This document shows positions 23,843-25,437 of a DNA stretch of 64,000 nucleotides, piece by piece. Under the pieces are notes generated by a model. It was not told where the DNA came from. It did no database searches and worked only from the letters and a program-made list of their open reading frames with translations. Source of the stretch: Escherichia coli (GTDB lineage Bacteria > Pseudomonadota > Gammaproteobacteria > Enterobacterales > Enterobacteriaceae); the NCBI RefSeq assembly GCF_030384885.1, contig NZ_CP128613.1; one strand, given 5' to 3'. Position 1 is the stretch's first letter. Each line of letters opens with the position of its first letter. The position numbers and the translations under genes are program-made.

Positions 23843-24640
23843 ATGGACATTCGACTATTAGCAACGCTATGGTTATGGAATATCTCCCCTCGATTAGTCG
23901 TTATCGTCACGACCATTGCCTTCTCTTCCTGCTCGTGGGCTCGACTCACTCCCTGTAACAGTAAATCCGATATTGTTTGCCTGCAGTTGCGTGCGCAGCA
24001 AGGTAAATCATCGGATCAATACGATCTTGCATGGATATATCTAAAAGGGGATGGTGTAACGCCTAAAGATGATAAAAAAGCGCTGTACTGGTTTCGTAAA
24101 GCTGCAGAGAATGGTATGGCGGGAGCGCAGTATCGTCTTGGACGCCGTTATTATTCAGGTGATGGGGTGACATAAAATTATAAAGAAGCTTTTAACTGGT
24201 TTATGAAAGCTTCCGGGCGGGAAAATTCCTGGGGAATAGCCGCCGCACGCTACATGGTTGGGGTAATGTATTATCGTGGGCAGGGGGTTGAAAAGAATTA
24301 TACTCATTCTTTTTCCTGGTTTATGAAGTCGCTGAACGGGGCAGGTCGAGAGAAAGCAAGTAGGGCTTGCTACTTTATCGGTTCACAATATCTCAGTGGT
24401 CATGGCGTTACGCAAAACAACGACCTTGCCGTTGCCTGGTTTTATCTTGCAGCAAAATTAGGTTTGCCAGAGGCAATAGAGTATATATCGGGAATAGAAA
24501 AGCAATTCTCAGCGGAAATGCTCAAGCCCGCAAGAATCGAAGCGAACAGAATTAATGCCAAACATTATCTTGTACAGATACCTTTCCCGGAGTTATTGGC
24601 AGAGTCTGCGGCGGAAGTTGTAGTGAAGGGGGCAAAATGA
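23843..24640 (+). pseudogene. Sel1-repeat (TPR-like) exported protein interrupted by an in-frame TAA inside a Sel1 repeat
   Basis: AGGAGG 6 nt upstream of ATG 23843; N-terminal hydrophobic signal-like segment; four Sel1-type repeats (e.g. ALYWFRKAAENGMAGAQYRLGRRYYSGDGVT); TAA at 24173-24175 sits at a repeat position and the reading frame continues (GDGVT*NYKEAFNWFMKAS) to 24640. Confidence 0.7.
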
Positions 24641-25437
24641 AAAAAAGCGTATTGGCGTTCTCAATGCTATTTTTTAGCTATGCTGTCTACGGGGGTAATA
24701 GTATAGTGCCTCCGGCGAAGTATATGTCTTCGGATGCACTACCTCTCCAGATTGTCTACCGTTTTGACGATCACCGTTATATCATTTTAACAGGTGAAAA
24801 GCGGCATTACGACGGTGTTGATTATTGTTCAGGTCAATACTGGTATACTGATACACAAAAAAATATATTTTCCCGTGTTGGCGATACGCGTCACAACAAA
24901 TGGGTTCCGGAATCCATTGGTTCACGTTCTGCAATCACTCCCTCATATGACAGTCCACTTCCTGAAAATATAAAGTTTATTCATGATTCTGAAAAGTATA
25001 TTTTTGTACCTCTGGGGGGCGATCCACATAAAAAAGATAAAAATGGACAACTGATTTATGAATACCATGAAGTGCAAATGTCATCCGATTATGGCGCGAC
25101 CTGGAAAGATATCAACTTATCGGTTGAACCCGCGACCAGTGATACGCGATTGATTTTTCATGAGGGCCAGCTATTTATTGATGATAAGGATGGGTTTTAT
25201 CTCAGTCAAATCCCGATGCATAGTTTTTTTATGTATTATTATGATTATCACAGTCAGAATAATGATGTTAATCTGCCCAAAAATGTACCAGTCATTAAAA
25301 ACTATCGCGGTTGGGATCACATGCAGTGTTCAGAAAATGCAGAATTATCTGTAGAAGAGGCGGAACGTTTTCAACAAGATCGCCAAAGAAGTTGGGATTC
25401 CTGGGGCCGAAAAGGTGATGAAAAAAACTATAAGTAA
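24637..25437 (+). CDS. Exported hypothetical protein with a single Asp-box (SxDxGxTW) motif
   Basis: 266-aa ORF; ATGA overlap with the preceding gene stop; N-terminal signal peptide MKKSVLAFSMLFFSYAVYG; motif SSDYGATW; AT-rich. Confidence 0.7.
   Translation: MKKSVLAFSMLFFSYAVYGGNSIVPPAKYMSSDALPLQIVYRFDDHRYIILTGEKRHYDGVDYCSGQYWYTDTQKNIFSRVGDTRHNKWVPESIGSRSAITPSYDSPLPENIKFIHDSEKYIFVPLGGDPHKKDKNGQLIYEYHEVQMSSDYGATWKDINLSVEPATSDTRLIFHEGQLFIDDKDGFYLSQIPMHSFFMYYYDYHSQNNDVNLPKNVPVIKNYRGWDHMQCSENAELSVEEAERFQQDRQRSWDSWGRKGDEKNYK

Follow-up and report, generated by a model that had tools for sequence, protein, structure and literature searches.

A Tli3-family immunity gene, orphan by context, in an island between eutR and hemF of Escherichia coli

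Introduction

What could be the role of a small Escherichia coli protein with a predicted signal peptide and a single Asp-box, encoded immediately behind a Sel1-repeat gene? The question is raised by an open reading frame (ORF) of 266 codons, located on the plus strand at 24637..25437 of a 64,000-nucleotide stretch of an E. coli chromosome (contig NZ_CP128613.1, assembly GCF_030384885.1), which is called here, as a whole, the window. An earlier note on this DNA, made from the letters of the sequence, had read the ORF as a secreted BNR/Asp-box protein whose start codon lies within the stop codon of an adaptor-like Sel1 gene. The ORF and the ATGA overlap are present as described, but the BNR identity has to be replaced: by sequence and fold the product is a member of the Tli3 family of type VI secretion system (T6SS) lipase-immunity proteins, and by context the gene is an orphan. 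We refer to it as tli3-like (tli3L) and to its product as Tli3L.

Orphan, or accumulated, T6SS immunity genes are immunity genes retained without their effector, and they decide which strains outlast contact-dependent killing in the gut. The Tli3 family is known and already annotated; the additions made here, namely a one-Asp-box hallmark, three loop subtypes and a Sel1-tli3 cassette, are modest; the general understanding of T6SS effectors and their immunity proteins stays as it was.

Family membership and fold

Tli3L matches the Pfam family PF24316 ("T6SS Tli3 immunity protein") with an i-Evalue of 1.2e-15 over residues 36-162, and the RefSeq product name in two complete E. coli genomes is "T6SS immunity protein Tli3 family protein". 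An NCBIfam search assigned no family to this ORF or to the two ORFs downstream of it. When 5.8 billion proteins were searched through a word index, only 19 relatives came up, all of which carry PF24316. They comprise a 100% cluster (E. coli and cryptic members of Escherichia), an 83% cluster from E. albertii, a 45% singleton (P0003), and lipoproteins of Enterobacter and Serratia at 25-28% identity. When a profile was run against 1.84 billion representatives, 217 relatives were found. A profile of 56 full-length homologues matches the solved Tli3 of the adherent-invasive E. coli (AIEC) strain LF82 (8BOZ_B) with E=6.8e-26 over nearly the full length; this structure was reached by profiles only, as a single-sequence phmmer search against the PDB gave nothing relevant. 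All the family-invariant residues are kept in the window protein.

The fold was modelled with AlphaFold2 on the 56-sequence alignment (predicted local distance difference test score, pLDDT, 79; predicted template modelling score, pTM, 0.77); this version superseded an earlier 10-sequence model, which was unusable (pLDDT 46). The Tli3 fold consists of three stacked beta-sheets, as seen in 8BOZ_B, and the same arrangement is found in the model of Tli3L. After Tli3 itself, the next-best structural neighbours were all beta-propellers, with low scores. Indeed, the Tli3 fold looks like an arc made of three blades of an Asp-box beta-propeller, a likeness that goes unmentioned in the Tli3 structure paper, where the fold is called unique (PMC9860674). 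The protein falls short of a closed 6- to 10-bladed propeller, having about three sheets and one Asp-box.

The Asp-box of Tli3L (SSDYGATW, residues 149-156, 25081..25104, plus strand) is placed in a hairpin made by model strands 145-149 and 157-160. In the six translated frames of the window, no other strict match to SxDxGxTW occurs, and shuffling of the protein yields the motif in only 17 of 200,000 shuffles, too rarely for a chance occurrence. The pattern S-x-D-Y-G-x-T-W is invariant across the 10 closest homologues; in the 56-sequence alignment, S149 and G153 are invariant, while D151 is conserved in at least 90% of the sequences. The motif is degenerate (TTDGGKRR) in the solved AIEC Tli3. 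Nearly all full-length family members examined have exactly one [ST]xDxGxx[WFY], at the homologous position; the earlier remark that a single Asp-box is unusual does not apply within this family. The Asp-box is genuine and is a hallmark of the family, not a peculiarity of the window protein.

A similarity to Asp-box propellers, which the earlier note had proposed to look for, was found at the level of the family profile. This profile matches the Asp-box blades of GH74 enzymes (E=8e-12), sialidases (~1e-7) and also sortilin, the range extending to 1e-5; the matches to these multi-Asp-box propellers span about 40 positions, roughly one blade. The SxDxGxTW motif within a beta-hairpin is common to Tli3L and to the propellers of sialidases, GH74 xyloglucanases and the sortilin Vps10 domain. 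However, Tli3L has a single Asp-box, about three sheets in an open arc, and no enzymatic context. A full-text literature search retrieved no paper tying the Asp-box to T6SS immunity proteins.

The plug-loop region and the long subtype

In the complex of AIEC Tli3 with the phospholipase A1 Tle3, which is formed 1:1, the beta6-beta7 loop of the immunity protein (residues 133-150) enters the catalytic crevice of the lipase (PMC9860674). In the alignment with 8BOZ_B, the position of this loop is held in Tli3L by an insert of about 18 residues (127-144, GGDPHKKDKNGQLIYEYH; 25015..25068, plus strand), delimited by this alignment and by insert lengths and predicted to form a beta-hairpin (model strands 130-133 and 139-141). 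The Pro125-Ser149 spacing amounts to 22-24 residues in this long type, represented by the window protein and three relatives, compared with 9 in canonical enterobacterial Tli3. Over the whole alignment, three types of loop occur between query residues 125 and 149: a 9-residue loop; a 16-24-residue loop with two cysteines, which includes that of AIEC Tli3; and the cysteine-free hairpin of 22-24 residues, in which P130, K133 and G137 are invariant among its four members. Further marks of the long subtype are an extended hairpin that precedes Cys64, an insert at about residues 81-112 whose structure is poorly predicted, and a C-terminal helix; the central insert of about 45 residues of canonical Tli3 is absent.

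Tli3L has in common with AIEC LF82 Tli3 (LF82_434; 8BOZ chain B) the N-terminal motif PxQV[IV][YF]R[FI]DDxRY, a conserved cysteine, and a long loop directly before the Asp-box strand. On the other hand, AIEC Tli3 is an outer-membrane lipoprotein encoded beside tle3 in the T6SS-1 cluster, with a degenerate Asp-box and a Cys-stapled loop, whereas Tli3L is without lipobox cysteine and without adjoining effector gene, and its Asp-box is perfect and its loop cysteine-free; in addition, it bears extra inserts at residues 54-62 and ~81-112 and a C-terminal helix at 239-260. The canonical Tli3 lipoproteins of Enterobacter, Serratia, Rahnella, Klebsiella and other enterobacteria are 25-28% identical to the window protein by BLASTP and share with it the motifs QVxYRFDxxRY, C-x-G-x-x-W-Y-T-D-T, SxDYGxTW and GWxHMQC, with one Asp-box each. 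They differ in having a lipobox, a 9-residue stretch instead of the 23-residue plug-loop region, and the central insert; moreover, their genes lie directly 3' of tle3, often in tandem arrays, whereas the window gene has no tle3.

Predicted export and disulfide

The N-terminus of Tli3L (MKKSVLAFSMLFFSYAVYGG) presents basic residues first and then a hydrophobic core, with Kyte-Doolittle 11-residue means up to 1.95, and in the alignment it lines up with the lipoprotein signal peptides of the homologues. From the hydrophobicity profile and this alignment, a Sec signal peptide is predicted (MKKSVLAFSMLFFSYAVYG, residues 1 to ~19; 24637..24693, plus strand). This predicted leader agrees with the signal peptide announced in the earlier note and would take the protein to the periplasm, the compartment to which AIEC Tli3 is exported. 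The E. coli and E. albertii proteins have no lipobox cysteine, while most relatives carry one. Because this cysteine, which would carry the lipid anchor, is absent, the predicted periplasmic form is probably soluble.

The protein has only two cysteines, Cys64 (24826..24828, plus strand), which is invariant in the 56 family members, and Cys231 (25327-25329). As both are conserved and no other cysteine is present, a periplasmic Cys64-Cys231 disulfide is likely.

The Sel1 partner gene and the overlap

The junction between the two genes (GGGGGCAAAATGAAAAAA; 24626..24640, plus strand) contains a Shine-Dalgarno-like AAGGGGG element (24626-24632), four bases 5' of the tli3L ATG (24637-24639), and this ATG shares bases with the TGA (24638-24640) that closes a 145-codon Sel1 frame. 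The overlap takes the form ATGA in the window, in the second E. coli and in E. albertii, and TAATG in locus L004, the K. michiganensis-type locus described below; the Shine-Dalgarno sequence at the E. albertii junction is AGGAGG. Because the overlap has been kept in these three lineages despite protein identities of only ~45-48%, co-expression of the Sel1-tli3L pair has probably been selected.

The partner gene itself (23843..24640, plus strand), which begins with an N-terminal hydrophobic leader, is a pseudogene in the window. Codon 111, which is AAA in E. albertii and in another E. coli genome, reads TAA here (24173-24175), and this single change splits the frame into ORFs of 118 and 145 codons. 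Only one other complete E. coli genome has the island, that of strain 2017-02-2CC, and its Sel1 is hit by a 1-bp deletion in a G-run. The two inactivations of Sel1 are independent, while tli3L stays intact.

These findings qualify the translational coupling that had been proposed for the pair: the overlapping codons are conserved in the relatives, but the Sel1 gene is not intact here. Since the upstream frame stops 462 nucleotides before the junction, the normal coupling cannot operate in the window and could take place only through the putative 145-codon restart ORF, the one frame that reaches the tli3L start. The Shine-Dalgarno-like element would allow an independent initiation of tli3L. A scan for promoters and terminators gave no convincing signal above the shuffled expectation.

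The best solved match of the window Sel1 is C5321 of E. coli CFT073 (4BWR), a generic Sel1 protein. The designation of the partner as adaptor-like finds no support, the documented T6SS role of Sel1-repeat proteins being immunity: Sel1E of Klebsiella pneumoniae is an immunity protein against VgrG4 and neutralises its DUF2345 domain (PMC7108748). The window partner likewise has Sel1 repeats, with a hydrophobic leader, and in L004, L036 and L059 (see below) Sel1 genes are found among the immunity genes of a T6SS effector locus; in the window, however, the gene is a pseudogene. We also considered Sel1 as a membrane tether for the lipid-less Tli3L. This idea was dropped, as P0003 keeps its lipobox though paired with Sel1, P0052 (a long-type relative described below) has neither lipobox nor Sel1, and the E. 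albertii Sel1 lacks the cysteine.

Genomic context of the relatives

Searching the contigs of species-representative genomes with a profile of the long-type alignment, we retrieved 52 loci. Most of them have the order (VgrG with DUF2345)-Tle3-Tli3(x1-6)-PAAR, and a few are short contigs or solitary Tli3 genes. All 52 are of the canonical short type, at no more than 39% identity; no further long-type or Sel1-coupled case was found in the species-representative genomes.

The closest relative outside Escherichia, P0003, is 45-48% identical to the window Tli3L and is encoded at L004 in the order Tle3-Tli3(232 residues)-Sel1(290 residues)-Tli3L(265 residues)-PAAR. The Tle3 of this locus shares 99% identity with a protein of K. 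michiganensis, and a full-length comparison of the L004 Sel1 with that of the window gives 39% identity. In other K. michiganensis strains, the slot held by Sel1-Tli3L in L004 is occupied by an ordinary extra Tli3. The pairing with Sel1, for which the earlier note had suggested a search elsewhere, thus recurs both in E. albertii and at a K. michiganensis-type tle3 locus. When the tle3-tli3-Sel1 region of L004 was compared with all complete E. coli genomes by blastn in distant mode, no match was obtained; the effector type of L004 is thus not seen at the DNA level in those genomes. The fourth long-type member, P0052 of the K. huaxiensis/oxytoca group, is an orphan at L009 (8001-8795), beside the menFDHBCE operon, with no tle3 in the sequenced flank and no Sel1 gene upstream.

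Sel1 genes are present in the immunity arrays of two more tle3 loci, L036 of Rahnella rivi and L059 of a metagenome-assembled genome, their products being 25-27% identical to the window Sel1.

A few other arrangements were seen among these loci. A solitary Tli3-family gene with no tle3 in the sequenced flank lies at 3035-3994 of L039 (Escherichia sp. MOD1-EC7003). Four to six tandem Tli3 paralogues follow one tle3 in Rahnella bonaserana (L022) and Escherichia sp. ESNIH1 (L017), and six occur in succession in Rahnella sp. AA (L026); such arrays suggest an accumulation of immunity variants. In Siccibacter colletis (L042) and in a member of the Zoogloeaceae (L054), two consecutive tle3-tli3 pairs form duplicated effector-immunity modules.

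Conservation of the island

In the window, the order of the genes is eutB-eutC-eutL-eutK-eutR ... hemF-amiA-ypeA, and tli3L is part of an island of about 3.8 kb (about 23740-27590) inserted between eutR and hemF. The island has four genes, and much of it is low in GC: the content drops to 35-45% across ~23.8-26.2 kb, compared with 50-59% in the flanks. The neighbours of tli3L are the same in the window and in its E. coli and E. albertii relatives: eutR, Sel1, an ORF of 221 codons, a DUF1963 gene and hemF. The eutR-hemF site is a variable hot spot. Of 5426 complete E. coli genomes, only 28 have it occupied, 2 with the full island and a further 26 with the DUF1963 part only.

E. albertii has this island too, at the corresponding site; its Sel1 is intact, with 284 residues, and overlaps tli3L by ATGA as in the window. 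When E. coli is compared with E. albertii, the synonymous divergence (dS) is 0.46-0.58 for the island and 0.54 for hemF, and for tli3L the ratio of nonsynonymous to synonymous divergence (dN/dS) is 0.15, with a dS of 0.58. Because the dS of the island is near that of hemF and the dN/dS of tli3L is low, these values indicate a long residence of the island and purifying selection on tli3L. Within E. coli, tli3L is intact at 266 codons in many assemblies, one allele being found on 541 contigs.

Proposed function and alternatives

We consider it probable that Tli3L is an orphan periplasmic inhibitor of Tle3-type phospholipases, kept against foreign T6SS attack and using hairpin 127-144 as a plug. 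The Sec signal peptide would take the protein to the periplasm, where it would adopt the three-stacked-sheet Tli3 fold, probably stapled by the Cys64-Cys231 disulfide, and bind an incoming Tle3-type lipase 1:1. Placed where the plug loop of AIEC Tli3 is, the protruding hairpin may then block the catalytic crevice of the lipase. Since no tle3, vgrG or PAAR gene adjoins tli3L, the toxin that the protein would guard against is one delivered by other bacteria, not one made by the cell itself. Sel1 and tli3L make up a two-gene cassette, which also fills an extra-immunity slot of a K. michiganensis-type vgrG-tle3 cluster and whose Sel1 half is inactivated in the window strain. Like other orphan immunity genes, tli3L has no effector beside it and lies in a variable, low-GC island; it differs from such genes generally in that its cassette includes a Sel1 partner and sits at the eutR-hemF hot spot, outside an effector cluster, and acquired defence would be its putative role. 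If this is true, an E. coli or E. albertii lineage with such an inhibitor and no toxin would be pre-armed against Tle3-secreting Klebsiella, Enterobacter and other enterobacteria.

Several observations weigh against this role. Of the 129 positions of the PF24316 model, only 4-102 are matched, the protein is ~15-18% identical to the solved Tli3, the Foldseek template modelling (TM) score is only 0.36-0.48, and the window insert is not similar in sequence to the Cys-stapled loop of AIEC Tli3. As for the context, no Tle3, VgrG or PAAR gene adjoins tli3L in the window or in its E. coli and E. albertii relatives; and because in L004, the only effector-linked context, Tle3 is separated from the Sel1-Tli3L pair by a canonical Tli3, the pair may be non-cognate there as well. 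Finally, the Sel1 partner is a pseudogene in both complete E. coli genomes with the island, and some tli3L alleles of Escherichia sp. and E. albertii are split or truncated (119/138 and 184/185 residues), a sign that the gene may be decaying in some lineages.

Some of these points would be expected if tli3L were a decaying relic, i.e., a former immunity cassette of no further benefit to E. coli, drifting in a rare island and poorly expressed because its partner and operon leader are broken. The double knock-out of Sel1, by the nonsense codon in the window and the deletion in 2017-02-2CC, agrees with this explanation, as do the presence of the full island in only 2 of 5426 genomes, the split and truncated alleles and the lack of a convincing promoter or terminator above shuffles. 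Nevertheless, we regard it as unlikely, given that the ORF is intact in many E. coli assemblies, with one allele on 541 contigs, that its dN/dS against E. albertii is 0.15, and that it has its own Shine-Dalgarno-like sequence and retains every family-invariant residue. The perfect Asp-box, together with the profile matches to GH74, sialidases and sortilin, would suit a carbohydrate-active or carbohydrate-binding, sialidase-like BNR protein with no part in interbacterial competition. To this explanation, however, we give hardly any credence: the matches do not go beyond the ~40 residues of the Asp-box blade, and about three blades with one Asp-box do not close a propeller. A sialidase or glycan-binding identity was rejected on the grounds that Tli3 is by far the best match in sequence and structure, that the three sheets form an open arc and that the context of the relatives is that of T6SS effector-immunity genes.

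A different kind of immunity could also be envisaged, in which Sel1 and Tli3L form a two-component unit, Tli3L working only with Sel1, or in which the target is a toxin other than Tle3, such as a VgrG C-terminal domain. The tight overlap in three lineages, the similar divergence of the two proteins (45-48% for Tli3L, 39% for Sel1) and the Sel1 genes in the arrays of L036 and L059 speak for the unit. As for another target, PA0261 of Pseudomonas aeruginosa, called Tli3 by name, is periplasmic and neutralises not only Tle3 but also the C-terminal toxin of VgrG2b (PMC6560169), and the VgrGs of the tle3 loci carry DUF2345, the domain neutralised by Sel1E (PMC7108748). On the other hand, the K. huaxiensis-type P0052 is solitary and has no Sel1, tli3L is intact in both complete E. 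coli genomes although their Sel1 is broken, and the identity of the L036 and L059 Sel1 proteins to that of the window is only 25-27%. All in all, we find this alternative quite improbable, and the inhibition of a foreign Tle3-type lipase by Tli3L is the function that we favour.

Two broader proposals may be added, which we advance jointly and only tentatively, as a conjecture that we would not expect to hold in full. According to the first, Sel1-Tli3L would be a mobile two-gene immunity cassette among gut Enterobacteriaceae, residing in the K. oxytoca/michiganensis complex in the variable immunity array behind tle3 and, toxin-free, at eutR-hemF in a minority of E. coli and E. albertii lineages, as an acquired protection from competitors armed with Tle3. 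According to the second, the Tli3 fold would derive from an Asp-box beta-propeller as a fragment that evolution turned into an inhibitor of lipases, the inhibitory loop having been inserted just ahead of the Asp-box hairpin independently across subfamilies.

Other genes of the island

Two genes on the minus strand complete the island. The ORF of 221 codons (25472-26137, minus strand) is convergent with tli3L and located where the GC content of the island is lowest, ~35-38%. No match was obtained for it in Pfam, NCBIfam or the PDB, the Pfam and PDB searches giving only noise (tyrosine phosphatase, E=0.004). In E. albertii the ORF is kept, with 223 codons and a dN/dS of 0.28.

The following gene (26197-27450, minus strand) encodes a protein of 417 residues with several CxxC pairs and a weak match to DUF1963 (E=5.7e-5), limited to the C-terminal 50 residues; no solved relative was found in a PDB search. 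This DUF1963 gene is present at eutR-hemF in all 28 complete E. coli genomes in which the site is occupied, and most of its carriers have the gene of a 105-residue hypothetical protein in place of the 221-codon ORF, tli3L and Sel1. In E2348/69, the place after the DUF1963 gene at which hemF would be expected is taken by an SNF2-related gene.

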